A stretch of DNA of 58,422 bases, filler included, from Porpidia crustulata (Eukaryota), in NCBI GenBank assembly GCA_964255105.1. It is 5 parts of 5 records of this genome, joined end to end, with 100 filler letters (N's around TTAATTAATTAA, not from the genome) between each part and the next. Parts side by side here need not be neighbours in the genome. Positions count along the whole stretch, not along the records: positions 11,717 to 23,324 come from CAXUWE010000630.1; positions 23,425 to 35,030 come from CAXUWE010000631.1; 3 more parts are not named here. One strand, 5' to 3'. This document shows, in pieces, positions 11,617 through 46,830 of the stretch. The notes under the pieces were generated by a model, which was given only the letters and a program-made list of their open reading frames with translations, made no database searches and had not been told where the DNA came from. The number at the start of each line of letters is the position of its first letter. The stretch's first letter is position 1. A program made the position numbers and the translations under genes.

Positions 11617-11716
11617 NNNNNNNNNNNNNNNNNNNNNNNNNNNNNNNNNNNNNNNNNNNNTTAATTAATTAANNNNNNNNNNNNNNNNNNNNNNNNNNNN
11701 NNNNNNNNNNNNNNNN
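11617..11716. other. Artificial contig linker (N44-TTAATTAATTAA-N44)
   Basis: Palindromic 12-mer giving stops in all six frames, flanked by Ns. Identical at four positions in the window. Confidence 0.97.
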
Positions 11717-16019: not shown

Positions 16020-17759
16020 TCAGTATTGCGAGCTTTCGCCTTGAGAATGATTATTCCCGTTGGTCCCTGGGCGTCTCAGTGTTGAATTTCTGTAACTTGA
16101 GTTTGGGGGTTGTGGTAGTGGTCCTGAGGGAGGGGGCGCCGGACGAATTGGTAGATTGAAGCTATCATTATCTTTGGGCCTCGACTGTAAACCAGATGCC
16201 GCATTGGTACCATCATGATCCCGTAATCTGCTTGAAGAGCTACCAGGTATACTACCAGATGTACTCGACGTTCGAGGCGGGAATGCTTGACGCGCAAACG
16301 CTGGATTCGGGGAGGCATATTTGCTCGCGCCATTAACATCAACGGGCAGCGTACGCTGAACAACGACAGTATCCGATGGCGGTGATGGTTTCATGTCATC
16401 GCCGACAATGGGTATTTCACCAGAGGTTGGAGTCTTGGATGCGGAAGATTCTTTGGAAGGAGAAGATATCGGATCGCTGCGAAGTAATTCTTGAGTTGAC
16501 GGTGACAGTTGGGGCGCAAGGTGGGATTTGCGGTTATGGCGCTCCATCATTTGGACCGCCCAGTCTTCAAGGTCGACTGGTGTACGCTTAGCGGCTTGGA
16601 GAAACGCATCTTGATCCTACATCATTGTCAGCAATGAACAGCAAATGCCTAATGGTATACCTACGTATAGCTGTCGAGGCGATGGACGCTCCTCCGGGTT
16701 CTTGAGGAGGCATTTTTGTATCATTTGATCAAGAATTGGAGGGAATGCGTCACTCTGTGGTAGTCTTGGAGATTCCTCAAATACGATATGTTGTAAGAGA
16801 TCAAGTATGCCCACAGGCCCTGCACTCACTCTATCTCCAGCCGCTGTATCGCTGTCATCAAATGGGAATCTCCCGATAGCGAGCTCCATCAGAGTCAAGC
16901 CTGTGCTCCACACATCGGATTTGATCGAATAATTGTGACCTTGGATACGTTCAGGTGCCATGTAGGTCGATGTGCCGACGAAGGTATCTGCGACAGAATT
17001 CACAAGTTCGCCCGAGACGCCAAAATCACAAAGCTTGATATTGCCCCGAGAATGGACTAAAACATTAGAAGGTTTGATATCGCGGTGCATAATACGGTGA
17101 ACCTCATAAAGATAAATCAGACCGCTGAGAATTGCTTCAGCTATTTTCCCTAAAACATCTACGCGAACAGGGCCGAAATCTTTAGAGATACGATCTAGCG
17201 AGCTAAGGTGGTGTCAGGTAATTCAGAGAAAGCTTGCCGAAGAGTACGAGCTCACCCGCAATCCATATATTCCATACACATGATTACGTCCCCAGCGTCG
17301 TTCAAGAAGGCGCCGTAAAAGTTGACAATATTAGGTGAGGTACACTCATGCATTATCTGTAATTCTCGAACAATGTGCTTTCGCACTTTACTGTTCGCTT
17401 CCACGCGAATCACCTGCCAGATCGGTCAGCCAGATGAAGTCTCGAAGTATTACCTTGTGTTGCAAAGGTCGTACCTTTTTCGCCATGATGACCTTTGTCG
17501 CCGCATGCATAACCTTACTTACAGTTCCTCCATTTCCAGCTCCGAGCTCTTTTTGGACGATCAAGTCTTCACTTCTGAGATCCAGCTTAAATTCTACCCC
17601 AATCTCAAGTGTGTCCGGTCTTGTAACATCATTGCCAATTCCACCAGGGATTTGTGCATCACCCGCTGAAGGTGCAGCAGCTTTTGGAGCTGGTGCATTG
17701 AGTGCAAGCCCCTTCTTATTTTTGCGGTCAAAGGTACGAGCTTTCTGAATGCCCGACAT
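16020..17759 (-). CDS. STE7: MAP kinase kinase Ste7/MkkB
   Basis: N-terminal docking motif RKNKKGLALN, ELGAGNGGTV, HRDIKPSNVL, and DFGVSGELVNSVADTFVGTSTYMAPERI. Three introns. Confidence 0.93.
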
Positions 17760-18363
17760 GTTATCGGATGTTCTGGGTGGTAGGGCTTGACCCTGAGGAC
17801 GTTGCTCGGAGAAGAAGTTCACCAGGAGAGCTCAAGGATGGTAGCGCAGTTTCAGTCCCTATTACATGAATTATGGGGGCCAATGAGTCTGTAATTATAC
17901 GTTGGGAAGTGTGCCAATCAGTAGGTCAAGTCTTGGAATCCTATTCTTGATCTCTTGAGGACGCGGACACTTCGGAAGTGAAATACCACAGCCAACGAGT
18001 AATGGTATTGCTAAGCTTCAAGTAATATGTGCTGAAAGTTTATGAATGAATGTTTGGAGTGAAAGGAAGTAGGTAGCGGTTAATCGTGATGAACCGCATG
18101 TAGGATGAGCTATCTCGGCAGACTTAGTACCTTCATAGGGCTGACTCTCATTGTCTTAGGTTTGCCCTTCCAATGACAAAGCTACCAGCGAATATATATC
18201 ACTTTTGATTTCAACATAGCAAACGATGTGAATTGCAGTTCCTACTTGATAAATTGAAAGCATAGACTTTTATCAGCAATTCGACACATGGATGTGCAGC
18301 CGAGATTACTAAGTAGAATATCTACGGTCTACCGTTTGATACATCTAGAGTTAACTAGGGTGC

Positions 18364-18617
18364 CACGCGCCAGGCAAAAAAAGCCGCGCACCCAAAATTT
18401 TCTGCCTATGTTAAAGCGACAAGAATTGCGAATTGCTACATTTAGATTCTTTTTCAGTCTATAGGTATCATGTTCGATAAATCTTCAAAATTTAATAAAC
18501 GACGAGAACAAAATAACGAGTCATTAAAACAATAAATCTTCTGAGATTCAGTAGTAAATTTGGTGGTGGAGTGCGGGGGGGAAATTTGGGTGCGCGGCTT
18601 TTTTTGCCTGGCGCGTG
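18364..18617. mobile_element. MITE-like element A, 254 bp, 33-bp perfect terminal inverted repeats
   Basis: TIR CACGCGCCAGGCAAAAAAAGCCGCGCACCCAAA at both ends, AT-rich non-coding interior, and direct repeat GGTGC at 18359-18363 and 18618-18622. Confidence 0.85.
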
Positions 18618-18755
18618 GGTGCCAGTACTTTTTGTTCTTTGGCAAGGTACGAGGCCATCATACCGCCCACTACCTATGAGCAAGGCAAATTGGAAATTCT
18701 TTGATAGTATATTCCACTTGCGCGTATATCCCACCTCGACGACCTCATAACCACC

Positions 18756-21700
18756 ATGAGCGCTCTAGATCTGATTGTGGGAGAGGCTGAACTTGACGAT
18801 GACGAGGGGGAGGAGTCTTTCGATGACGAAACTGGTGAAGTGAGGCGGAAAGCTAATGGTACGAATGGGGTCAATGGCCATCTTGACGATTCAAGCGAAG
18901 AAGAGGACGACGATGATCCAGAGGCCGCGCGACTGGTAGGCTGCTCATTGTTCATCTCAGAGATTTCTTGCTAAGGGTAGCCTGTGATCACACTAGATTA
19001 GAGAGGGTTTTATCGTCGAAGATGAAGAGGAACCAGAAGAAAGAGATAGGCGTAGAAGAGAAAGGAAGAAGCGGAGAAGAGAGGAACGAGAGGAGGAGGA
19101 AGCTGGTCTGGACGAGGAAGACTTAGATCTGATTGGAGAGGCCAACCCTGACTTCGGACGCCGGGAACCAGTTGAGGTAATGGTAATGCATTAGCAGAAG
19201 GTTTCAGTGCTGACTACTCTCAAGCCTAAACTCAAACGCTTGAAGCGAGGGCACAAGGAAGATCGGGAAGGAAGGCCTTCAAAAGGAGTTGGCGGTATAT
19301 TTGATTCTGATGAAGAAGAAGATATTCCACACACGTATGAGCCTCAAAGGCCTAATCGAGCAGAACCACGGACCGTGGAAGATGAGTTTGCTGATTTCAT
19401 TGAAGAAGACTTTTCTGGTGACGAAGGGCGAGATGGAGCTGACGACGATGCTGAGGTGGCTCGACACGTCAACAGGGCTTTGATTGGAGCTAACGATGCC
19501 GCGGGTCTCGATGAGATGACACTGGAAGACATGAAGGAAGCATTTGGTACAGGAGCTGAGTACGACTGGGCACTAGAACTTCAAGAGCAGGAAGAGGATG
19601 AACAGCGGCGAGTGGATGTTGATGATCCCGACGGACTAGTCAAAGGCATCGAGCTCAAAGACGTCTTCGAGCCTTCTCAGCTTGCTGAAAGAATGTTGAC
19701 CGACGAGGATAATCAGATCCGCTCTATTGATGAACCGGAGCGCTTCCAGATAGCCAGGAAACCTTACAGGGATCTTATTCTCACAGAGGAGCAATTCAAG
19801 GAAGAGTCGCTTTGGATATCAGACTTGATGCTACTCAAAAAACGCCTGGAGGCCGATCTCCGAGAGCCCTTCCAAAAATCTGTTGCAAAAGTGTTGGAGT
19901 TTATGATTACGGACGAGTACGAAGTTCCATTTATATTTCAGCATCGCAAAGACTACTTGATCCATGCCGCAAAGATACCGAGCTCACCGGACGCTTACAA
20001 TCAAGGTGCTCCACAATATGTGGTCAAGGCTGAGAAATTACTTACTCAATCGGACCTTTGGGAGATATTTGAGCTGGATCTGAAGTTCAGAGCCCTTGTT
20101 GAAAAGCGTAATGCACTGCAAAAGACTTATGACAATTTGACAAGTATATCTGAAATGCATGATGGGGTCTTCGAAGAGATGATACCTACAGCAGTAACCA
20201 TGGAGGAACTACAAGATGTGCAGGATTACATGCATTTCCAGCACTCTTCACGCCTTGCAGATCTTACAGTGCTTAATGGCTCAGGAGTCAATGGAACCCA
20301 GCGCCGGCCCGGTGCATCAAAGCTAATCTTCGAGCGCGTACGCAATGGAAAGGTATACGGCTTGGTGCGTGCCTTTGGTATTTCCGCGGATGCGTTTGCA
20401 CAGAATGCGCTTAAGAAGGAAGGCAGAAGGCAATATACCGAGGATCCCCCAGAACGGCCTGACGATATGGCAGACAGTGACACGATCCTAGACCCGCCCG
20501 ACTATTCTTCTGGCGCACAATGCCTTAGGGCAGCGAAAGCCATGTTTGCGGAAGAAATTTCCCTCAGTCCTAAGATGAGGAAGGTAATGCGTCGCGCATA
20601 CTACACGAACGGAGTAATCGATTGCTTCAGAACAGAAAAAGGCTTGCGTAAGATTGATGAGCAACATCCTTATTATGAATTCAAGTATTTACGAGATCAA
20701 CAATTGAGCGACATTGCTCGACAGCCTGATCTTTTTCTCAAAATGTTCAGGGCCGAAGAAGAAGGCCTTGTTGACGTGAGAGTACGGATGCAGAACTATG
20801 AAAACTTCAGAAACAGACTTTACAGCGATATTGAGTCTGACAATTTCAGTGAAGTGGCTGATGCATGGAACCGTGAGCGACGAGACGCGGTAGACATGGC
20901 CCTTCTGAAATTAGATAAGATCATGGCAAGAGGTGTCAAAGAGAATCTGAAGACGGAATGCGAAAACCAAGTCGCTAAGTCTTGTAGGGAAGAATATGCA
21001 AAGAAGCTCGATCAAGCGCCATACAAGCCGAAAGGAATGATGCTAGGCACGGTCCCCAGGGTTTTGGCGCTATCTAACGGCACTGGCACGTTCGGACGAG
21101 AAGCAATCTGCTGGGCATGGGTTGAAGAAGACGGGCGTGTGCTTGAAAATGGCAAATTCATCGACCTTTCCCTTGGCAACGTCGACAGAGGCACCGAGGA
21201 CGGAGCGGACGTGAAAGTCTTCGTGGAGCTCGTGGAGCGACGCAAGCCTGATGTAATAGGTGTTTCAGGCTTCTCGGTCGAGACTCGAAAGCTTTTCAAG
21301 CAGATTGAAGAGATTGTCGAGTTCAAGAACCTCCGAGGCCCTGATTACGAAGACGAAGACGGCAACGACAATAGCGACAAGCTGGAAGTTGTTGTAGTAA
21401 ACGATGAAGTCGCGCGACTGTATCAGACCAGTGATCGAGCTAACATCGAGCATCCCGGCTTTACGCCTCTAACCAAGTACTGCGTAGCGCTCGCAAAGTA
21501 CTTGCAAAACCCGATGAAAGAGTATGCAGCTCTTGGTAGAGATATTGTGTCTATCTCTTTTGACCCGTGTCAAGGATACGTACCTCAGGAAAAGATCATC
21601 AAGCAATTGGAGACGGCAATGGTTGACATGGTCAATCTTTGCGGTGTTGACATCAATGACGCCGTAAGCGATATCAATACAGCCAGTCTGCTCCCTTACG

Positions 21701-23252
21701 TTTGCGGTCTCGGCCCGCGAAAGGCATCGCAATTGCTTAAGGTCATCAACCTTAACGGAGGCATTGTATCTACACGAGCCGAGCTCGTTGCAGATCTGGA
21801 TCAGGGCAGACTTGGTGCGGTAGGTCCCCGTGTCTGGAACAATTGCGCCAGTTTCCTCTTTATCGATTTTGATCCTTCAGAACCTGAATCGGATTATCTT
21901 GACAATACCCGTGTACATCCTGAAGACTACGATCTTGGGCGCAAGATGGCAGCAGACGCATTGGAGCTGGATGAAGAAGATATTGAAGCTGAGCAACAAG
22001 AGAATGGGCCGGGAGCCATTGTGCGAAAATTAATCAAAGACGAGGCTCAGGAAAAAGTCAACGATCTTATCCTCGAAGAATATGCCGAGCAATTGGAGAA
22101 AAACTTCAATCAGCGAAAACGTGCGACATTGGAGACCATTCGTGCAGAATTACAGCAGCCATACGAAGAGCTGCGCAGAAATTTCGTGTTACTCCCACAT
22201 AACGATATTTTCACAATGTTCACTGGCGAAACTCCCCAATCGCTTTGTGAAGGCATGGTTGTTCCAGTGTCTATCAAGAGGGTAGGCGACGACTATGTGG
22301 ACGTTAAGATGGACTGCGGTATTGAAGGAACAGTATCAGCGTCTGAGCTCTCTAATAGACCTGAGATTTCCGCCAAACAACTTTTCGCATTACACCAAAC
22401 AGTCCAAGCAAAGATCATGAATCTGAATAGAAAGCAACTCTCTGCAACATTTTCCCTACGAGACGACGAGCTCCGAAGACCTTATCGCAAGGAAATCGAT
22501 CGATCTCAGGATGAATGGGACGAAGGTCAGGAAATGCAAGACAAAGAGTCTATGAAGGAAAAGAATGACGTATCTGGCCGAACTCAGAGAGTTGTCAAGC
22601 ATCCCCTATTCAAACCCTTTAATAGCGCCCAAGCAGAGGAGTACCTAGGCTCCCAGGCAAGAGGTGATGTAGTGATCCGTCCTTCGTCCAAGGGAACTGA
22701 GCACCTTGCTGTGACGTGGAAAGTCTCCGACAATGTATATCAGCATATTGATGTCCTCGAGCTCAACAAATCCGGACCATATGCGACGGGTACAACTCTC
22801 TCGATTGGCGGCGGTCGCTTCACCTACAGTGATCTGGATGAGATGATAGTCAACCACGTAAAAGGCATGGCAAGAAAAGTAGACGAGATAATGCTGCATG
22901 AGAAATACCATATTACTAGCAAAGCGGAGACTGGTAAGTTGAAACTATCTCATCCCCTCGTTTCAATCTTTCAATCCTATGCTGACATGGTTGCCGTTCC
23001 CAAGAACGATGGCTCACCACCTACACCGAAGCCAACCCCAAACGCTCCGTCTACGCCTTCTGCATCAACCCCAAACACCCCGGCTACTTTTTCCTTTGCT
23101 TCAAAGCCGGACAGCATGCGCCCGTGCAGAATTGGCCCGTCAAAGTCGTGCCGAACGCATTTGAGCTGCAGAAGAATCCGTACCAGGACATGCGGGCCCT
23201 GTGCAATGGGTTCAAGCTGCTTTTTCAGAGTTTGCAGAATGGGAAGCGGTGA
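18756..23252 (+). CDS. SPT6: Transcription elongation factor / histone chaperone Spt6
   Basis: Acidic N-terminus, [18 protein letters not shown], YqgF-like and HhH regions ([11 protein letters not shown]), S1 and tandem SH2 ([12 protein letters not shown]). Three introns; the last starts at 22934, so the true C-terminus differs from the ORF track. Confidence 0.95.
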
Positions 23253-23324
23253 TAATGGGGGGTGGTGGGTCGTAGCGTTGTCCTTTCTTGCAAATGTCTC
23301 TGGGAGTATCGCGGTGGACGGTAT

Positions 23325-23424
23325 NNNNNNNNNNNNNNNNNNNNNNNNNNNNNNNNNNNNNNNNNNNNTTAATTAATTAANNNNNNNNNNNNNNNNNNNN
23401 NNNNNNNNNNNNNNNNNNNNNNNN
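23325..23424. other. Artificial contig linker
   Basis: N44-TTAATTAATTAA-N44. Confidence 0.97.
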
Positions 23425-23709
23425 GTGTAGGGTGTTGGGGCCTCTCATTCGGTCCATGTTACGAAGTACTGTGACAGCTAGTTCGTGGACCAATAGTCAG
23501 CCCGTCAACATCGAACTTTTGAGAAATGGGAAACACACGAAGGCTGAGTAGCATATCCATAAGGTTCTCAAGCTGCCATAAGTGAACAATACCAGCGAGT
23601 CCAGCAAATCGTTTGTATGTCTCACTTTGGGGCAAAGTAGCGGTGCCCCATTTCAATGCTATCATTGAGATTCCTCTACATTTATTCTGTAAGCAGCCAA
23701 CTCAAGTAA

Positions 23710-26291
23710 TTACACCTTCCCCCTAACGATGAATGGGTGCTTCAACGCTTCTGCCGGTGTGCACCTCTTGTCCGGATTCAAACTCAGACACCTCTCCAGC
23801 AGATCCACAAACAGGTTGAGTTCCTTAATATCCACATCATCCATCCCTTTCATGTTGGCCATCAGCCTTGTCTTAATATCTCGCGTAGGCTTTGTAAGAT
23901 TCAAGATGCGAACGACATCCTTTCCGTTCAACCTATCCTTCTCCACACTTCGGAAGTTGAGCAGGTCATCAAAGTGCAACCCGGCGAATTGCGCCTTCCG
24001 AAGGATCTTGTGGCTGAATTTACCGCGACATTCCATGATGGCACGAAGCATCTGATTGTTGCTGCGGCCGGTAAAAAGGATCTTGCCGGAGTAAAGCTCG
24101 AAGAGGGTACAGCCAACGGACCAGATATCGATGGCAAAGTCGTACGGCATCCCGAGTATGATCTCTGGAGCTCGGTAGAAGCGACTGACTAAGTAGGGTG
24201 TAATCTCGTTCTCAGAAGCATCCGATGCGGAGCCAAGATCGCATATCTTGAGGACGTTGCGCGACTCATTGACGAGTACGTTGTCCGGCTTCAGATCTGC
24301 GTGGAGAACATTGCATCTTCGAAGTAAGCTTAAGCCCATGAACATTTGCTGTGCGTAGATTCTGACGGCCTTGAGATTGATGCCAATGTCCCTTCCAAAT
24401 TTCTTCAAAACTTCGCGAAGATTAATGTTTAGATTCTCAAAGACCATGCAAAGATGTCCCTTATGCTCGAAAAATCTCTCGAGTCTAATCATGTGTTTTC
24501 TATCTTCAGGATCAGCTTGCAATAGCTTCTGAAGTATCTCGATTTCTTTAAGCCCGGCTTTCTTCCTGAGAACTATTAATATGAGACAATAGACGGAAGA
24601 CTTAAATCATTACTCACATTGACTCATTATTGCGGATGATCTTGATAGCTACTAATCTCTTCAATTTTTGGTCCAATGCCCGCACTACGCCGGAGAACAT
24701 TCCCTTGCCCAGATTGGATTGAACGTGATAACGGCTGTCGAGCAACTCGCCCAGGATGACTTTATAGTAGCCTTCAGGGTCATCCCAGTCATCAAGCATA
24801 CTTAAGTCAAGTGCCTTAGTCTGAGATACTGCTACTGCAACTGCCTTCGCGGATTCTTTATCGGGCCCCCGTTCAACGAAGGTTGGAGCTTCGGCGAACA
24901 TGTCAACGTCATCGCCGTCTGCAAACATATCAAATTCATCGCTGAGCTTTCGCGCAGTTGACTCATGATTGATATGATCGGGCAAGAGAATGTCTTGTCT
25001 AGCACTCGTAGTCTCATCGTAGGCACCTGAGGGAGTTTCCTCCGCTTGATGACGCTGATCGTTGCGCCGTCGATCTTCCTGCATGTCCATTGTAGGATCA
25101 TAATCAGCCGCGGAAGGTTCATCTTCTTGCACTGCTTCCGCAATTACAGTACCTCCATTAGCAAGATCAGAATCTCGAGTGACGATGAAGGCCATTGGCG
25201 AGTCTTCGCCAATGGCATCAGTAGGCGTGGTGTGAGACGATTTTTGTGGTGAAGCTGTCCATTAGTTAGCATCACCAGACAGGATGGATGAGGGCAAGAT
25301 TACCGAGAAATTCAAGATGAGATTCGAGATTGCTTTGCTCAGGCGTTGCTGGAGCAGAAGCGTGCTCCAGAGCTAAAACCTCCAATTGTAGGGGTATTGC
25401 TTGACCTTTGTACTTAGCTTTTATGGCTTCACGCTTCTTGCGACGCTCTTCGATCAGGTTTGCCTCGTCAACAGAATGTGTATCAAAAGCTTGTGGCTGT
25501 ACTTGCTCATTATCAATAGGCTCTGTCGGAGCTCTATGTAAATGTAGTTTAGTGAGAGATTTCGAAAATGCTTAGACTACATACCTATTTGAGATCTGAA
25601 AAGAAGTTGATTTAGATGTATTGAGATGCTGTGTCTGGTTGTGTCGGGTTTCAGCCTCATGTGTTACAGATGCAGTAGCAACTGGGGATTGTCCCCGATC
25701 GCTCACTGACTGTTGTGATGAAAGCTTGCCACTGCTTTCCCTATACCCGTGACGACTTCGCCCACTCCGACTGTGGCCATCTGCTAGGCTGATTCTATCG
25801 TCCCAGGGCTTCCGTAGTTGTTCTGCTCTAGTGGCCCTCAGTTGGAAGGGAGACCTACTCCGGGCTCTTGATCTCTTGTCTCTCAGTCTTCCACCACCAC
25901 TTTGATCATCGTAGCGAAACTTCGTATCCGGGCGTTCAGCCCGATCTATGTCATCGAAATATTTCCGTGAATTTCGCTGGCCCCCAACTGTAGGATTTTC
26001 GTATCGGACTTTGAAGCGTCGAGGATCATCTCGTGTCTGGTCAGTGTGATGGTCGTCCTCCCATAATCGCTTTGCTCCTCGAGGCTCTCGATAAGGTGAA
26101 CGAGATCGGGTTCGAGACTTGTAACGTATGGGAGACCGAATTGGTGTAGGAGACCGTGACACTGAAATGCGTTTTCTGGATTGACGGTCAACGTGGGTGC
26201 CATTAACTTTCATCAGCGACGTAGTTGCCTTGTCTGAGTCTGATTCGACTATCTCGCCCTCAGAAGGAGTCGACTGCGGTGAAAGAGCCAT
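23710..26291 (-). CDS. PRP4: Splicing kinase Prp4 (PRP4K)
   Basis: RS-rich N-terminus, DDWDDPEGYY, LGKGMFSGVV, HADLKPDN, and ITPYLVSRFYRAPE. Three introns. Confidence 0.93.
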
Positions 26292-26694
26292 CCGAAGCTA
26301 CGAATAGTATTGAAGTCCTAGGTTTCGAAGGTTTCGGTCAATTGTTAGCCACTGTCGCAAACACTTCTGAGGCTTTGGTAAGAAACCGGTGATGATTGTC
26401 CTCCTGGCGCTTTCACCACATCCAGCTTAGATTTATACTCTCCACGTTGCATTCGAACAAAGTAGACTAGCCTTGCTTTTGCAATTGACCAGATCTTATT
26501 ACAGGATAGCCAGATTTGGCTTAAGTTTTACACTTCAATCCTGATGGGCGTGGAACAAGAGGCCGCCCGTCCTCGGTAAATTTGGTCTAACTTGATTCGA
26601 GAGCCAACCTTACTACGTAGAAACCTCAAAAATTACTCCATCAACCGAAGTCACACATTCCAACCCCTCCCTCCAATCCAATACTTCTAACAAG

Positions 26695-27015
<321 letters not shown>

Positions 27016-27351
27016 GATTAGTCTCGCAGGATACTGGACGCATTGTTATCAACCGGCGTTTGGTGGAGTCAGAGCGTTATCAAGTTGAAAGAAGTTGCAT
27101 CTCAAATGGCAGCTAATCTAACTACCAAATAGTCGGTTTGCTTCTCCGAGTGAATGGATGTCTCCACATGTATGGCTATGATTTCCACTATCAATCTAAC
27201 AAGCGCAGGAATATGTCTTGGATGGTGGTGATTCTGCACAAGAAACCGTATCGGTCTATTGTCCGCAGACTCTAGTCATCTGACAGGCAATATCTACATG
27301 GAGCCCATCGTACAGGTATAAACTTACATTTGCGCTACTGCCTTGTCGATT

Positions 27352-29386
27352 TTAAGAAGCAATACGACGAACCCAAAGTACCGATTCGAAAGAATTGTCG
27401 TCACTTCGCTTCCAAGCTCTGTGCAGCTTAAGACCGGTCTCGTGCTCTTCCTTCATAACCTCTGCTAATTCTTTGCTCAAACCGTCGACCGTTTTCCTGA
27501 TCTCTTGCCTAGATGCTATATCGTACGCGATGGAAGACGGTTGCACTACATTGGTGAGCTCATGAATAACTGTCTGAAGGTTACTTCGTCGGCGGCGCAA
27601 ATTATCTAGTTGTGCTTGAAGGCGCGCAACCCTGGAGACTGCATCTACCTCTGGAGGAGATTTAGGCAATGCTTTTGTGTGTCTTTCATTACCCAATTCA
27701 GATTTCGAGGAGACTTCCATCTCAGATGGCGTAGGCTTGCGTGCAATAGCTTTCGAACCAGTCGTCCCAGAAGTTGGGACCGGCCGCTTTCGATTCAGTA
27801 TTGATGGAGAATCGGCAGACATGGGAGGTGTTGGCACGGGTTCGGATTTTACTTCAGGGGTCATTGGGGGGCTGTCATAAGCCGTTGTAGCGTAGGTCGT
27901 CGCACTAAATCGACTTCGAGGTTGGTCTTCCAAATGTAGATTTTGCATGGTCGTCCTAAATGTGTTTTCGTCGGTGACTGGGACTTGTCTGATGCTATCA
28001 CTGGAAGGTGTAGATTCAGGTGTGGCCTGCTGACATTCGTCCTTTATCACCACAGTGCTAGGGTTGCGTTCTAAAGGAGACCTAGTGTCTTCCGGGGACA
28101 ACCCCGTAGGAGTTGGATATAGATTTTGGATAGGTCTTTGGCTTGGCTGTCGCGGCGCTTTTGGGTTTGGCTCCGGAGCCAACGCTTGAGGTGCCTGTTG
28201 AGGTGCCTCGGTAGTCATTAGTATTGGCCGATTGGTCTTGCCAGCATCAATTGGACCGCTCTTCGGTGGACGTCTCTTGATGGCATCGTGAACATCTAAT
28301 GATTTCCTGTGAACGGCCTGACGAGACGATGGCACAGACTGGCTTGTCTTGCGTTGATGTAAGCGGCCTGCTGTTGGGGATGTAGTTTCTACACCATTTA
28401 CTACTTCCAGTGGACTTCCAAGCCGTTTGTGCATACCAGCCGGGAACGTGGGAGATTGCCCTGGTGGTAGAGGTTTATCCACTAGGGGATTCACAATCTT
28501 ATGACGCCCGCTCGCGCCTTTCCATTCTTCTCGAGGTGGCCAAGGTGCTTCACTAGTACCCTTGCTCCCAACTCGTTTCCTTGGAACGGTCCCGCCACTT
28601 ATAGTAGTGGATACACCAAGACCCTCGGTTCTTGCCGTTGAATTCGAATCGGAGTCGAAATTCACAGCCCCGGGAATAGCTTGCGCGGGCTTGCCCTTCT
28701 CGCTGGTTGTAGGTTCACCGGAAAAGTCATCCCATCTCGTCAGATTGGTCGAAGGCGACTCTCCACCTGGCGAGCTCGTTCCTGGGTTTTTTGTTTTCCA
28801 ACCAGAAAATAGCTCTCTCGCACCACCATACTTTTGCGGTTTCTTGAGAACAGGTATGTGGCTGCTGGGTTTGCCATTCGCTGGATGACCATCGTCTATT
28901 GCGTGTGGGAACTCGCCTACTGGTGAAACATTGATACTGCTCCGTCGACTCCTGAGTTGTCCACCTTCGTGCACTGTAGGCGAATCGGGCGGCGATACGT
29001 CATCCGGGTAGACCGAGGAAGTCCTTGGGATGTCTAGTTTCGGCATGCTCCCTTTCAATGGTGGTGAGGGTTTGGAATACACGGAGGATACAGTCGGAGC
29101 GTCCGAGATAGGCCTGCGATATGAGCCTGCTTGCATCTGAAGTGCATTACTGCTCTACAGTCAGCGCATACCCCCACGAGACAGCAGATTTGACATACAA
29201 AGGCAGTTTAGGTAGTCCTTTTAGCACGTCGTCTGTACTCTTTCTTCCGAATGCGGGCCTCGAGCTAATACTGAAGTCTCCCTTGCTCAAGTCCGTTGCA
29301 TTGTCCAGAACGGCATTGTCCACATCTGTTTCGATAAGTGCAGGACTCCCGATCCGGTCAGGTTGGCGATTGAGACGTTTCCACAT
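27352..29386 (-). CDS. Uncharacterised Pro/Ser-rich protein with C-terminal coiled coil
   Basis: ORFs 29147-29386 and 27352-29136 join in frame through intron 29150-29198. Conserved-looking motifs TRWDDFSGEPT and EEHETGLKLHRAWKR...LWVRRI. Confidence 0.75.
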
Positions 29387-29942
29387 TACTCATCGATCGA
29401 CTCAATGTTATTTGGTGCCTACCAGAGATTTATTTGCTCTCGACGTTGGAAACAGTTATGTCGGGTCGAACTCTCCTTATAGATGATGGAGTGAAAGATA
29501 TGAAGGGCCGAGTTTAAGTATTGCTGCTCTAATTTCCAGATTGAGAGTAAGTAGGCAAAGAAGATTCAATGAGAGATATCTGGAGGGTTTGAAGATGTGC
29601 ATAGATGAAAGATTGGTGAGTGAAGATGTACCTCTTGCGAAGACATCTAGAAGTATGTATAATAACTATCAATAACATTGCTGCCCACTAATTTAGGGGC
29701 GAAACGGCGAAGTTGTAGGGTGGCTAGGGCGGCGGCTGATCCCGTAGAGTAGTTGAGGTTTCATACCTGCGCGATTCGTGTCACAGTTATCTCCAGGAAC
29801 CATGTCATCCCGTCCTGCCATTAGCACACTTTATCATTATATCAGTTCCTACTAACCGTACAGACAGAATACAAATCTTCGTCACCACAGGCAATTCATA
29901 TAACGAGAAGGTCCCAACAGCTCTATACAATCTTCAACCATC

Positions 29943-30562
29943 ATGTCTGAAGGTGAATGTGATCCGAGCGCTTCCGGCGACATGTAGGTTGACATCTAAA
30001 TAGCAGACAACGCCAGCACGGTAGTACCTGCTCAAGCGTAGGTTTTGCCCCCAAATCCATAAGTGATATCTAATAAGATGTTCTCAGAGCTCCGATTGCA
30101 ACACCGATCAACTTCGTCCTTATTTCACTACTCATCCTTCTTGCTTACTATCGTTTGCGTCCGCAAGCTGCGCAAACTCTCCCTAAGCCCCCCTCGCCCA
30201 TTGTCTTCCGAATATTTACACCTCCCGATTTGAAGCCATACAATGGAGAGAATGGCATGCCAGTATACCTTGCAATGAGAGGCAAGGTTTTCGACGTCAC
30301 TTCTGGCAGAAATTTCTACGGTCCAGGTGGACCTTACGAGAACTTTGCTGGGAGAGATGCAAGTAGAGGCCTGGCATGTGGTAGCTTTGATGAGGATATG
30401 TTAACAAAAGACCTTGAGGGACCTCTGGATGATCTAAAAGGTCTTGGGGATGATGAAACACATGCGCTGCAAGATTGGGAAGATCGATTCTCGGAGAAAT
30501 ATCTTGTGGTAGGGAAGTTAGTGCCTGTTGGAAGCGCAGAGACTTCAAAAGCTAGTCCATGA
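29943..30562 (+). CDS. DAP1: Cytochrome b5-like heme/steroid-binding membrane protein (Dap1/PGRMC family)
   Basis: VYLAMRGKVFDVTSGRNFYGPGGPYENFAGRDASRGLA. Two short 5' exons splice in frame to a hydrophobic anchor (NFVLISLLILLAYY). Confidence 0.9.
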
Positions 30563-31452
30563 GGTGTACCCCTACCTACTGTACGGAACATGATGCCACG
30601 ATCATAAAGAATACCTGGTGTTGGTTGTCTTGTGCGACTTAAGGTTCCGCAGACATTGAGGAAATGGAATTTCGATTCAAAAGCTCGCATCCCATGCTAC
30701 AGGTACCGTGGGTCCCACAACGACCCAGTATATCATTACGATCAGCTTCTCACAGTTAGCACCAATTCATACCATCAGACATCTTGTTTCGTCCGCATTG
30801 ATACTGAGAGATCGAACTTCACGCTCTGTCTCCGCGCACTATAACCAGCGCAGCCGTCAAAACTTGGCGTTGGAGCACAGGGGGTGCCATGAGAATGCAA
30901 ACTACTCATCTCAGCTCTTGTCTGCTTTTCTGGATTCCTAAATGTTGTTTTCAAATTCAGTACGCCGTGACTTCTGAACGACCACAAACGTACACATCCA
31001 CGCGCATAGCTTTTGATTTCAGTATTCATTATACGCGATAAGATTAAGTGTCTGCAAAGATCTTGTGTTAAGTATCTTCTGCCGACCTATCTGACCCCTT
31101 ACCAAAGTCCTCCTCTATATCAGATTCCCTGCTCTGACCTCTGAGCTACCCTCTCTTTAATTCGGCCAACCCTAGCCCGCCTTTGACTGTGTGCTCTTAT
31201 CGAACGATTTTCACATAAGGCCTGATGGTAGTGTAGGTCTAGATTACTTGTAAAAAAAATATGTAAGGGACACTGACATATCCCCAGTTATGTTGAAATG
31301 ATCAAATCACTAGACAAACAATTCAAAGAGGATTGACCAAACTACGAACTCCGCAACTCATCACGCTCATCGAGCCCTGTTGTAGAACAAACCGCTCCTC
31401 TCGGTAAAAACTCCCGATTTTACGCCACACCGGGGCCTAAAGCCCGAGGTAT

Positions 31453-31753
31453 GACGCGGGAGACAAAAAAATCTTGACCGAAAATGTCAATCCTTCGCCC
31501 ACATCACTAGATTTACTACCGCATTTTTAAAGAAATCTACTGATTTGATAGTCAGTCATATCATTCTCATCATTAATGATTGCGCTCATGAAATTTAATA
31601 ACACTCTGAATTCTAGCTTGAGTAAATGAACCATGATCTCGATCAGAGCTCGATATTATGTTATTGAGTTTTTATCTCCAAAAATCAATAGTAAATTTGG
31701 TGGTGTGGGCAGAGGATTGACATTTTCGGTCCGGATTTTTTGTCTCCCGCGTG
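31453..31753. mobile_element. MITE-like element B, about 301 bp, imperfect terminal inverted repeats of about 65 bp
   Basis: Left end GACGCGGGAGACAAAAAAATCTTGACCGAAAATGTCAATCC... matches the reverse complement of the right end ...GGATTGACATTTTCGGTCCGGATTTTTTGTCTCCCGCGTG. Flanks are GGTAT and GGTGT; the interior is AT-rich. Confidence 0.8.
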
Positions 31754-32009
31754 GGTGTCTACTCACGCAATCACGGTACTCCCGTAAGATAATTCAGCCG
31801 CATCCCTGTAATGCCTAAGTAGCAACTAGGTGTGCTCACCATCACATATTAAACTCTGAAACTCGATCCACCTTTTTGTTGACTATCTGCAAGACGAGTG
31901 AACCAAGTGATGTCCGCAGAGATTCTTGAAGGAAATAAGATCTGTAGCTACTAGCATGCATCTCTCAAGAATCCCAGAAGCGATACTAGATCCGAGGTAG
32001 GGTCCTACA

Positions 32010-34713
32010 ATGGTCTTCATGTCGAACGAGAAGCCCAACAAATACGAAGAACAATCTTCTCTTCCTATACCCACATACGAGGAAGCAACGATATCCCGGC
32101 CATCCTCCTCTCAATCCTTTCTTGGAACCTCAGAAATCAGCCATGAGGCGGAAAGGCAAGGCCTCCTTAGCCGAACGCAATCGCAGCACAATGGTTATGA
32201 AGGGCCAAGAGTTGAATCAGCAAGGTCGAGTCTTGACATGTTACGGTCACCCAGTGATGGATCTCTTGGAGACGGTATACAAGGCCTACGGAGTGAGATG
32301 ACGCAGATGGTCATGCTTGAGCCTGGAGAGGGAGAATCAAGTGGACGTTCATTACGAGCTACTCGACTTTCCAAACGAATTACTAGCTTGACACATAGCC
32401 TTTCGTCTATCAATCTTCCTTTTCGCCAATTCTTACCGTCGTCCGAGTACATCAAGGCGCGAGTATCTTTGTGGCCCGAGATGAATTGGATCCTTGTAGG
32501 CCGCTTTTTCGCTTTATTCCTAGTACTAGGCTTGGTATATCTGCTATTCGTGTCTGATATATTCACCATGGGTCGAAGGCGGGGTATGCACATGTATGAT
32601 CCGGAGTCTATAAGAACATTCCTTCAAGAGAACGTAAACGAAACACAAATAAGTCAATACTCCGAGCATGCTACAAGATTCGACCACATGGCAGGGACGA
32701 AGGGTAATTTTCTTCTTGCACAATGGGTGGAGGATAAATTCCAAGATGCCACCCTGGAAACGGTTGGCTTAGAAAGATTTGACGTGTACCTGAATTACCC
32801 AAGAAAGGGCGGCCGACGTGTAGCCATTATTGAGCCATCTAATATGGTATGGGAAGCGCTAATTGAAGAAGAGCCTCTTTATACAGACCCACCACGAGAG
32901 CAGAACCTTGTGTTTCATGGCCATTCAAGATCAGGGAATGTTACAGGTCCCTTGATCTACGCGAATTACGGTTCAAGGCAGGATTTTAAAAACTTGAAAG
33001 AGGCTGGTGTTGATTTGAAAGGCTCAATTGTGCTTGTCAGGTACTATGGTAGTCAAGGAGACCGAGCGCTTAAGGTTAAAGCCGCCGAACTAGCTGGGGC
33101 CGTTGGTTGTATAATCTACAGCGACCCGGCTCAGGATGGCTTCCGCAAAGGAGATGTCTTTCCACACGGCCGTTACATGCCCAGCGATGGGGTGCAGAGA
33201 GGTAGTGTCGCAATGACTGCTTGGGTCGTTGGTGATGTACTGTCTAAAGGCTTTGCTTCTCTTCCAGGGGAGGGTGAAAGGGAGCCCAAAGATGGGAATG
33301 CCGGTCTCAATAACATTCCCTCTATTCCTCTTTCTTGGAGAGATGCACAAAAATTGCTTCAGGCTCTCAAAGGGTACGGCATAGAGCTTACTCGGTCATC
33401 AAATAATCCAATAAGCGAGGACTGGATCGGCGGCGTGCCAAATGTTACCTGGTGGACTGGGAATCACAACTCTCCCGTCGTCCACCTTAAGAATGAACAA
33501 GATGAAGAAGATAGGCAGCCTATCTACAACGTGCTGGGCAGAATATCAGGCCTTGAGCAGCCAGAAAAATCCATAATTGTTGGGAACCATCGTGATGCAT
33601 GGGCATTTGGGGCTGTGGATCCTGGTAGCGGAACAGCTGTGTTTCTCGAAGTTACTAGGATTTTTGGTGAGCTTAGAAAGCGCGGTTGGGCTCCTTTGCG
33701 AACAATCGAGTTCGCCTCCTGGGACGCTGAAGAGTACAATCTGATTGGGTCTACTGAGCATGTCGAGTCAAGGATAGATGATATCCGACGCAATGGCTTT
33801 GCATACCTGAATGTTGATGTCGCCGTTGCTGGGAGTGAATTCGAGCCTGCTGGTTGCCCGGTTCTGAAAAAAGCTCTATTACGTGTCCTTGATCGCATTC
33901 GGGATCCCATTACTAATAACACGCTACGGTCTATCTGGGATGAGAAAAATACTTCCCTTCGAGGTCTTGGCGCTGGTAGCGATTACGTGGCGTTCCAATA
34001 CATTGCTGGGACATCTTCTATCGACCTTAGTTTCGCAGGTCCCCCTTTTCCGTACCATAGCGTTTATGACAACTATGATTGGATGCGTTTGTTTGGAGAT
34101 CCGGGCTTCAAATATCATAAGGCGCTCGCCCAAATTTGGGCCCTGCTGATCCTTGAGATGGCTGACGCCCCGGTTTTACCTTTTGATTTCAAGGATTACG
34201 CGCAGGCGGTCAAACAGTATGTCGAAGAACTCGACGAATATGCTGATACAAAAGATCCATTAAAAAACGCCTTCAGTTTGGAACTATTGCATAGCGCAGC
34301 TGATGAGTTCATCGTCAGTGCAAATGAATTTCATGGCTTTGATCAGGATTGGTCGGACGGAGTATATGAGCGAGGAGGACTTGAGACGAACGTCATGGCT
34401 ATCAAACGAATGAGCCATAATACACGAATGGCGAATTTCGAGACCAATCTGCTTGACATTGACGGTGGTGTAAGTGAAGACGACGCTCAATACCTAATTA
34501 TACCTGTACATGACTGATATCTTGGCTTAGCTTCCGGGCCGAGAGCAGTACAAGCATGTCATTTTTGCACCTCAAGCATGGTCTGGTTATGACGAAGCCA
34601 AATTCCCTGGCGTTCGGGACGCCATTGACGATGGAAATTGGACCCTAGCGCAAGAGCAGGTGGTCAAAGTTGCAGGGTTCTTGTCACACGCAAGCCAAAG
34701 GCTGATTCATTGA
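32010..34713 (+). CDS. Glutamate carboxypeptidase II / transferrin-receptor-like membrane protein (Tre2/Vps70 type; PA, M28 and dimerisation domains)
   Basis: Single TM segment, YANYG PA domain, GNHRDAW, DPGSGTA, SWDAEEY and YHSVYD. One intron at about 34469-34530. Confidence 0.9.
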
Positions 34714-35030: not shown

Positions 35031-35130
35031 NNNNNNNNNNNNNNNNNNNNNNNNNNNNNNNNNNNNNNNNNNNNTTAATTAATTAANNNNNNNNNNNNNN
35101 NNNNNNNNNNNNNNNNNNNNNNNNNNNNNN
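35031..35130. other. Artificial contig linker
   Basis: N44-TTAATTAATTAA-N44. Confidence 0.97.
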
Positions 35131-35573
35131 GGTCCGCGCTAATACCTAGGGTTAGGGTTATAAAGATTTTAATTCGCCCACCATGCAAAAACGATCGGAT
35201 TTTCGAAATTTTTAGGCTCATTTATAGCTCTGATCTAGATATAAACAATAAGCTATTTAGATAAAGATTACATCGATGACGCATTGCGGTTACATCAGTC
35301 AAAATAATTTCAAAATTCTGATGTTCGTTATGTAATAAGGTTTCGAAAGCTAATTAATTAAGGTTTCGAACGTCTGCGCGTCTCATCGCATTTCAAACAT
35401 TCAATCGATGTAATTGCAATGCGTCATCGATGTAAATTTTATTTCAATAGTTCATTATTTAGATATAGATTAGAGCTATAAATGAGCCCCAAAATTTTGA
35501 AAATCCGATCGCTTTTGCATGGTGGACGAGTTAAAATCTTTATAACCCTAATCCTAGGGCTTAGCGCGGACCG
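35131..35573. mobile_element. Foldback/MITE-like element with 166-bp inverted arms (left end clipped by contig start)
   Basis: 35131-35296 aligns without gaps to the reverse complement of 35407-35572, with scattered mismatches. The right end is followed by TA. Confidence 0.8.
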
Positions 35574-41700: not shown

Positions 41701-44109
41701 CGGAAGAACAAGCAGGACGATAACGAGCAGCTCCAGCTTCCAATCAATGTACTGCGTATCATTGACGCTGCGAAAACCATATTTAAGATTAAAAATGGCG
41801 CTCGAAGCAATCTGCACCCCGCCGAGGTTATTCCCCAAGTGCGAGACCTTCTCGACCGTCTTGTGGTAGTTCGTGGCGACGATGAACTCTCCAAAGAGGC
41901 CCAACATAACGCCACATTACTTTTCAAGGCCCAGCTTCGTTCGCGTCTGGCTTTCAAGCGCCTGGTGAAGGAGAATTCTCTGAATAAGTTAGCGTTCCAG
42001 CATGTCATTGGCGAGATTGAGAGTCGATTTTCACGAGCTCTTGTCAATCCAGGCGAGATGGTTGGGGTTCTTGCTGCGCAGTCCCTTGGGGAACCGGCCA
42101 CTCAAATGACATTGAACACCTTTCATTTTGCCGGTGTTTCCTCGAAGAATGTTACACTCGGTGTGCCGCGTCTGAAAGAAATCTTGAATGTGGCGAAGAA
42201 CATTAAGACTCCTTCGATGACGGTATATCAAGAGGAGGGCAATACTGGGAATAAAGAAAGTGCAAAGCTTCTGCGAAGCGCCGTAGAGCATACGACGTTA
42301 CGTTCTGTAACAGAGAGTACCGAGGTCTATTATGATCCTGATATCCAATCGACTGTTATCGAGGCGGATAAGGATATGGTGGATTCCTATTTTATTCTGC
42401 CAGAAGCTGACGTAGATGACCAATTCCGCCAATCGAGGTGGCTGCTCCGTATAATCCTTGGGCGTCGTAGTCTACTTGACAAGGGTCTCACCGTGCAGGA
42501 TGTTGCTGCTAAGATCAAGGAAAATTATGCGAAGGATCTAGCTGTGATTTTCAGCGACGATAACGCCGACGAACAAGTTGTCCGTATTCGTATGATACAG
42601 GATCACAGCAAAGGGGACGAAGACGAGGATCTTGAAGAAGATCTCATGCTGAAGAGATTAGAAGCCCATATCCTTGACACACTTACGCTGCGAGGAGTCC
42701 CTGGTATTGAAAGAGCCTTCCTCAACAAGAGGACAAAGCTTCGTTTGGCGGACGATGGTGCGTTGATCATGAGGGCTAAAGATCCCCTCTGTGAAGAATG
42801 GTTCTTAGACACTAGTGGTTCATCTCTTGGAGAAGTTCTAACCATTCCTGGCGTGGATACGAAACGCACCTACTCTAATTCTTTTATCGAAGTCTTCGAA
42901 GTCTTCGGCATCGAAGCTACCCGATCCGCTCTTATGCGCGAATTGACGCAGGTGTTGGCATTTGATGGCTCATATGTCAATCATCGGCATTTGGCGCTTT
43001 TGGTCGACGTGATGACTTCTCGAGGACACTTAATGGCCATTACACGTCATGGTATTAATAGAGCCGATACTGGTGCATTAATGAGATGCTCCTTTGAAGA
43101 GACTGTGGAAATTCTACTCGAGGCTGCTGCTAGCGGCGAGCTGGACGATTGTAGAGGCGTGTCCGAAAACGTCATGCTTGGTCAGCTTGCACCTCTGGGA
43201 ACTGGTGAACTCGAAGTTTTCCTTGACCAGGATATGCTAAACACTGTTATTTCGGACAATGCTAGGTTTGGTATCATGCCCAACATCGGGATCAAAGGCA
43301 ATATGGTCCCTGATGGCGCAGCCACGCCTTATGATAGTGGCTCACCTCTGGGCGACAGTGGGTACCTTGGCACATCTGACGGTGCAGCGTTCTCACCCAT
43401 TGCTCAACCCGGTGGCGGGACTCCAGGTGGTTTCTCCGAATACCAGCCTCAAGGGTTTAGCGGTAGCCTTAGCCCTTACTCTGGTAATCGAAGTCCAGGT
43501 GGTGGCTATTCGCCGAGCAGTCCTTTCCACACAAGTCCTTCGTCTCCTCTCTTTTCTCCGACGTCTCCTGCAGGCTACTCACCAACGTCCCCTGGCATGA
43601 GTATCAGTAGTCCTGCGTTCGCAGTGTCGCCTCGCTTCTCGCCTGCGAGCCCCGCATTTACACCGACATCGCCCGCGTACTCTCCAACATCGCCAGCCAT
43701 AGGTCAAGTTGGTATCTCGCCTACTTCGCCATCATACTCTCCAACCTCTCCGAGCTACTCACCAACCTCTCCAAATTCGTATAGTCCGACTTCGCCTAGC
43801 TACAGTCCTACTTCCCCAAGCTATAGCCCAACGTCACCAGTGTACAGTCCAACCAGCCCGCAATTCGGGGGTGCAGCAGTTGCGAAACAACAATCGCCAA
43901 CTTCTCCGACATCACCAGCAAGTTACAGTCCCACATCTCCGGTATACAGTCCTACGAGCCCTGCCGGAAGCTATTCACCGACTTCCCCAAACATGGCTGG
44001 ATCCCCAACTTCTCCTGGCTCAGCACCGTACTCAGCCTCATCTCCGAAATGGTCGCCAACCTCCCCGACCTCCCCTGTCTACTCTCCTACATCTCCTAAA
44101 GGCAATTAG
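38711..44109 (+). CDS. RPB1: RNA polymerase II largest subunit
   Basis: Catalytic [16 protein letters not shown] and heptad CTD. Two 5' introns (38998-39056 and 39128-39193, approximate). Confidence 0.98.
43480..44100 (+). repeat. RPB1 CTD heptad repeats (degenerate YSPTSPS)
   Basis: Repeated SPTSP units in the translation. Confidence 0.9.
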
Positions 44110-46730: not shown

Positions 46731-46830
46731 NNNNNNNNNNNNNNNNNNNNNNNNNNNNNNNNNNNNNNNNNNNNTTAATTAATTAANNNNNNNNNNNNNN
46801 NNNNNNNNNNNNNNNNNNNNNNNNNNNNNN
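46731..46830. other. Artificial contig linker
   Basis: N44-TTAATTAATTAA-N44. Confidence 0.97.

Follow-up and report, generated by a model that had tools for sequence, protein, structure and literature searches.

In a 58,422-nt stretch of the Porpidia crustulata genome (GenBank assembly GCA_964255105.1; the whole stretch is referred to here as the window), we followed up two short elements, A and B. [quoted passage not shown] We observed shared ends, a variable 5-bp target-site duplication (TSD) without TA flanks, a loosely palindromic target, and a protein that is Tc1-type in sequence and fold. The window consists of five contigs joined by N linkers, taken from an assembly of 22.9 Mb in 2,447 contigs. 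The linkers (11617-11716, 23325-23424, 35031-35130, and 46731-46830) are artificial, each being runs of N around a TTAA repeat. One protein encoded in the window has its closest named relatives, at 74 to 77% identity, in lichen-forming ascomycetes.

Element A (254 bp; 18364-18617; termini CACGCG...CGCGTG) is 85% identical to its closest family copy. Its terminal inverted repeat (TIR) has a perfect 33-bp core, located on the left at 18364-18396 (plus strand), where it comprises the CACGCG terminus, an A-rich block from position 12, and an outer repeat, and on the right at 18585-18617 (minus strand). GGTGC flanks the element on both sides (18359-18363 and 18618-18622, plus strand). Element B (301 bp; 31453-31753) belongs to a different subfamily, and its first base is a G that has mutated from C. 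It has long, imperfect TIRs at 31453-31527 (plus strand) and 31680-31753 (minus strand), and its flanks, GGTAT (31448-31452) and GGTGT (31754-31758), both on the plus strand, match at four of five bases. The elements lie on separate contigs (C630 and C631) and share 56% global identity. These positions and flanks, which we reread, agree with an earlier note on this DNA. There was no Rfam match in window positions 17500-32500.

The earlier note assigned A and B to one non-autonomous family with CAC termini, and 38 two-ended copies extracted from the genome bore this out. The end pattern matched 96 times, versus 20 for a reversed-pattern control. To enter the 38-copy set, a copy had to have both ends placeable; selection was by ends, and flanks were ignored. 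We omitted L004 and L009, whose terminal bases are damaged, and about 10 copies with one decayed end; L004 and L009 had both been included in an earlier 18-copy TSD tally. The copies are 178 to 323 bp long with a median nearest-neighbor identity of 83%, and judging from this divergence the family is old and made up of several subfamilies. Like other MITEs, they are short, non-coding, dispersed in many copies (38), and bounded by TIRs and a TSD. The consensus end reads CACGYG, five variable bases, and CARAAAA from position 12. Unpaired end matches (40 stretches of the genome) were decayed MITEs or chance matches and included no long element.

The 5-bp TSD proposed in the earlier note was also upheld. 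The duplication is perfect in 21 of 38 copies and matches at at least four of five bases in 34. Mean flank identity was 88% at length 5, compared with 21 to 30% at lengths 1 to 4 and 6 to 9, and shuffled pairing of flanks gave a mean of 1 and a maximum of 7 perfect 5-bp pairs. TA on both sides was found in none of 52 elements. It is conceivable that the ends have been misdrawn, with the element beginning either at ACGCG next to a 7-bp TSD, an alternative raised in the earlier note, or at NCACGCG next to a 3-bp TSD. Reading GG-GTG-CC, the site of element A is by itself compatible with 3, 5, or 7 bp, and a 3-bp match occurs in 13 of 18 copies. However, the 7-bp duplication is perfect in only 2 of 18 copies. 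Of 76 ends, 74 begin with C while the adjoining outside base varies, and of 28 informative sites drawn from the 52 elements, 19 agree with 5 bp and 2 with 3 bp plus one additional terminal base. We therefore consider misdrawn ends very unlikely.

Target sequences vary among copies. The earlier note had inferred a shared GGTGY target from A and B, but this motif, read in either orientation, occurs at only 3 of 38 sites, two of which are those of A and B themselves. The preference is better described as a loose palindrome, TAS-SYWRS-STA, with SYWRS as its core. TAC or TAG lies directly outside the TSD at 21 of 76 ends, compared with a background of 3% (p about 1e-14). Targets lean toward GC (59%, versus 47% in the flanks). 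Evidence for an orientation bias depended on which TSD copy was read (left, p = 0.003; right, p = 0.09).

We scanned metagenome contigs with the MITE end pattern, obtaining 28 rows that represent 27 loci, some of them overlapping. These included further MITEs and seven elements of 1,274 to 1,468 bp with the same ends, which are long copies enclosing a transposase open reading frame (ORF), as the earlier note had envisaged. A single reading frame is present in all seven; it is intact in L130 (368 aa), carries one stop in L112, and is broken in the remaining five, which over their length share 72 to 95% identity with L112 or L119. In a BLAST comparison of 33 MITEs with the full-length elements (short or diverged MITEs omitted; 32 examined), most matched the ends at 70 to 88% identity. 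Perfect 5-bp TSDs flank four of the seven, none is flanked by TA, and nine of 14 metagenome elements overall are perfect at 5 bp. The transposase matches Pfam DDE_3 (35.2 bits versus a cutoff of 28.6; E = 1.4e-8), its only sequence match in the PDB is Sleeping Beauty (E = 1e-7), and a Foldseek search with its model returned Sleeping Beauty and Mos1 as the top matches, with SETMAR also present. Its second catalytic aspartate and its glutamate are 37 residues apart (DD37E).

These results bear on the idea that a Transib/RAG-type transposase, the kind suggested by the earlier note, or another of the CMCT clade mobilizes the family. CAC termini, a 5-bp TSD, and GC-leaning targets with a central W agree with Transib and RAG-like elements, as described in the available portions of Kapitonov & Jurka 2005 (PMC1131882), where Transib ends and the 5-bp TSD are defined, and Tao 2022 (PMC9435367). 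The latter lists 20 fungal Transib-like proteins, one of them from an ascomycete, while Muszewska 2017 (PMC5751038), in the portion available, gives Transib as absent from fungi. CMCT lineages have CA..TG ends and TSDs of 2 to 5 bp (Kojima 2025, PMC12730594, available portion). A CMC element is known from an ascomycete: Sly1-1 of Neurospora, which according to the part of Wang 2015 (PMC4592977) at hand resembles our family in having TIRs and a TSD of more than 2 bp, but is 11.5 kb long, with two genes and a CMC-type transposase. Nevertheless, the protein encoded by each long element that we found with these ends is of Tc1 type, as judged by DDE_3, the Sleeping Beauty match, and the fold. At 368 aa it contrasts with the Transib transposase (about 700 aa, with 206 to 253 residues between D and E, in the same sources). 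The terminal heptamer also differs, and no nonamer is found at a spacing of 12 or 23: of 76 ends, 57 have the A-rich block beginning at position 12 and only 2 are A-rich at positions 30-38, where a Transib nonamer would lie. Searches of this genome for RAG1 (PF12940), Transposase_21, and Plavaka gave no match, which is a weak negative, given the fragmented assembly and two of three control panels that were likewise without a match. A Transib- or CMCT-type mobilizer is accordingly very improbable, and the likeness to Transib appears to be convergent.

Alternatively, the Tc1 ORF could be cargo captured by a non-autonomous element that is moved by an unseen transposase. The most exact 5-bp TSDs lie around elements whose ORF is broken, and the copy with the intact ORF has no matching TSD. 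Yet the ORF occupies the whole space between the TIRs: in L112, the ATG is 104 bp from one end, the stop is 91 bp from the other, and the TIRs are 80 bp, which leaves no room for a nested element. Moreover, in different hosts the same end motifs enclose transposases that are only about 50% identical (L130 versus a P. crustulata relic described below), which fits coevolution better than a single capture. The two-site layout of the TIRs is that of Tc1 elements. The length of the elements is also as in Tc1 elements (PMC7325037, available portion). We give capture little credence, though marginally more than the two alternatives above.

The earlier note also drew attention to a 17-mer shared by A and B, which is present at 18552-18568 and 31689-31705 (both minus strand). 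Only 2 of 38 family copies carry it exactly, while 19 of 38 contain it within three mismatches, and we thus treat it as a variable inner subterminal motif rather than a fixed sequence. In the left TIR of B, a diverged version lies near 31502-31518. The TIRs of the elements that encode the transposase contain the motif too, with one to three mismatches and 47 to 48 bp from the ends, although it is absent from L130, and in an alignment of ends it resembles the outer TIR repeat. Because of this recurrence and resemblance, it is plausible that the 17-mer is a second transposase-binding site.

A Tc1-type route for the family can be outlined from Tc1/mariner chemistry. [quoted passage not shown] The transposase would bind an outer site (approximately positions 12-35) and the related inner site (the 17-mer, approximately positions 49-70). 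The element would be excised at the CAC, its ends would be joined to target strands 5 nt apart instead of 2 nt apart at TA, and the gaps would presumably be filled by host repair. More speculatively, two CxxC motifs specific to this lineage, which lie in the linker and clamp-loop regions, might bind zinc and alter the geometry of target capture, and this altered capture could have widened the stagger and abolished TA specificity.

For comparison, we examined a second Tc1 family of the P. crustulata genome, which is of DD34E type, is 25% identical to L130, and has an intact 344-aa ORF. Its element L143 (C180, about 16900-18390) is flanked by TA and accompanied by a large MITE family with 33 end matches. 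TA lies outside 21 of 24 ends in this family, demonstrating that our reading of flanks detects TA where it is present. A 232-bp repeat (L138; C122:2626-2857) was tried as a control and rejected, being single-copy and without a clear TSD; it has a perfect 29-bp inverted repeat and adjoins a decayed transposase fragment. The genome also contains a relic of the lineage itself (L132; C312:2003-3274), a single copy with a stop-free ORF that is 49 to 50% identical to L130. The relic has lost its second catalytic aspartate, and its ends are partly lost, with the same end motifs in decayed form. It might be a copy that has been domesticated or that acts in regulation.

Several observations weigh against a Tc1-type transposase with a 5-nt stagger as the source of A and B. 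The four full-length elements with perfect TSDs, out of only seven, are all decayed and come from two families. L125 and L130, the latter with the intact ORF, have flanks that do not match, which may reflect assembly joins of different copies, and a near 6-bp duplication suits L112 better. In this genome we found no intact, active partner, and no empty site was seen in the sole available sequencing run, which is probably the source data of the assembly. TSDs have been read only for lichen-type hosts, which represent one part of the protein clade. Lastly, the CxxC regions are modeled with low confidence (predicted local distance difference test, pLDDT, below 50 at 179-200), giving no structural support for zinc.

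The transposase belongs to a broad group of ascomycete proteins. L130 matched 512 proteins, with named matches in Dothideomycetes, Sordariomycetes, and Leotiomycetes, and at 50% clustering 455 representatives reached E = 1e-30. Named homologs include ones from Pyrenophora, Colletotrichum, and Clonostachys. We counted motifs in 268 retrieved proteins and in 120 relatives of the TA-type control. Of 124 relatives that could be scored for the spacing between D and E, 58 have 37 residues and 39 have 38, compared with a spacing of 34 in all 96 scorable control relatives. Both CxxC motifs were found in 139 of 185 scorable relatives versus 0 of 118 control relatives. In a FastTree phylogeny of 55 of the proteins, a long branch divides the lineage from a single TA-type fungal clade; the tree has long branches and gives a rough separation only. 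Two members of the clade (P0008 and P0084, from Pyrenophora tritici-repentis and Rutstroemia) are labeled "HMG box protein," which looks like misannotation. Prokaryotic genomes yielded distant matches only, the nearest being 24 to 36% identical and of IS630 type by inference. Viral contigs contained neither a relative of the transposase nor the end pattern, and plasmids contained none.

The elements resemble the Tc1 family, including Sleeping Beauty and impala, in length (about 1.3 kb), single ORF, TIR-ORF-TIR layout, and fold. Further likenesses are the HTH_Tnp_Tc3_2-like and DDE_3 domains and the FSDE and SPDLxPIE motifs. They differ in their variable 5-bp TSD in place of TA, their CACGYG termini, their two CxxC motifs, and a D-E spacing of mostly 37 to 38 rather than the canonical DD34E. 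Zator, ciliate TBE, and Tc4/Tc5 of Caenorhabditis elegans are ITm relatives with 3-bp AT-rich duplications and provide a precedent for a changed stagger, whereas the duplications here are 5 bp and GC-leaning. In the available portion of Dupeyron 2020 (PMC7325037), TA is the target shared by ITm elements and the fungal impala group is listed as DD37E, a spacing like the 37 to 38 that prevails here; our likening to impala follows this description. That source and PMC2817418, to the extent available, hold the TA duplication to be a defining mark of Tc1/mariner. Fungal surveys, in the portions at hand, report TA or leave TSDs unmentioned (PMC3441728, PMC2836289, PMC4188875, PMC5576322, PMC3538342, and PMC8773270), and the available text of PMC2817418, PMC13004909, and PMC10085805 contains nothing on a Tc1/mariner family with 5-bp TSDs. 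No description of such a family emerged from the literature searched, much of it available in part, with Repbase and Dfam outside its scope, and an earlier description is quite possible. We tentatively put at somewhat less than even odds the broader proposal of an undescribed, ascomycete-wide Tc1/mariner lineage freed from the TA rule, with DD37/38E spacing, a four-cysteine (probably zinc) module, a 5-nt stagger, loose GC-leaning palindromic targets, and ends that converged on a Transib/RAG-like CAC.

Sleeping Beauty-like proteins with a 5-bp, non-TA TSD make the structural basis of TA choice and of the cut stagger directly testable, and the lineage could be the source of a gene-transfer tool that favors other targets. 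Annotators should note that a fungal element with CAC ends and a 5-bp TSD need not be a Transib, and surveys of fungal Tc1 elements that demand TA flanks, as PMC4188875 does in its available portion, would miss elements of this kind.

We noticed several other features. A young, near-identical repeat that starts with GGGAAAG and has AT-rich flanks interrupts the assembly at the ends (L077-L083) of seven contigs, C667, C1860, C921, C1237, C1594, C513, and C1929, and one copy of it lies inside a MITE of the CACGYG-ended family. At a contig start in the window (35131-35572) is a foldback element with 166-nt arms that are 87% complementary and telomere-like TAGGGTTAGGG near its ends. Window positions 43554-44109 encode the ordinary heptad repeats in the tail of the RNA polymerase II large subunit.

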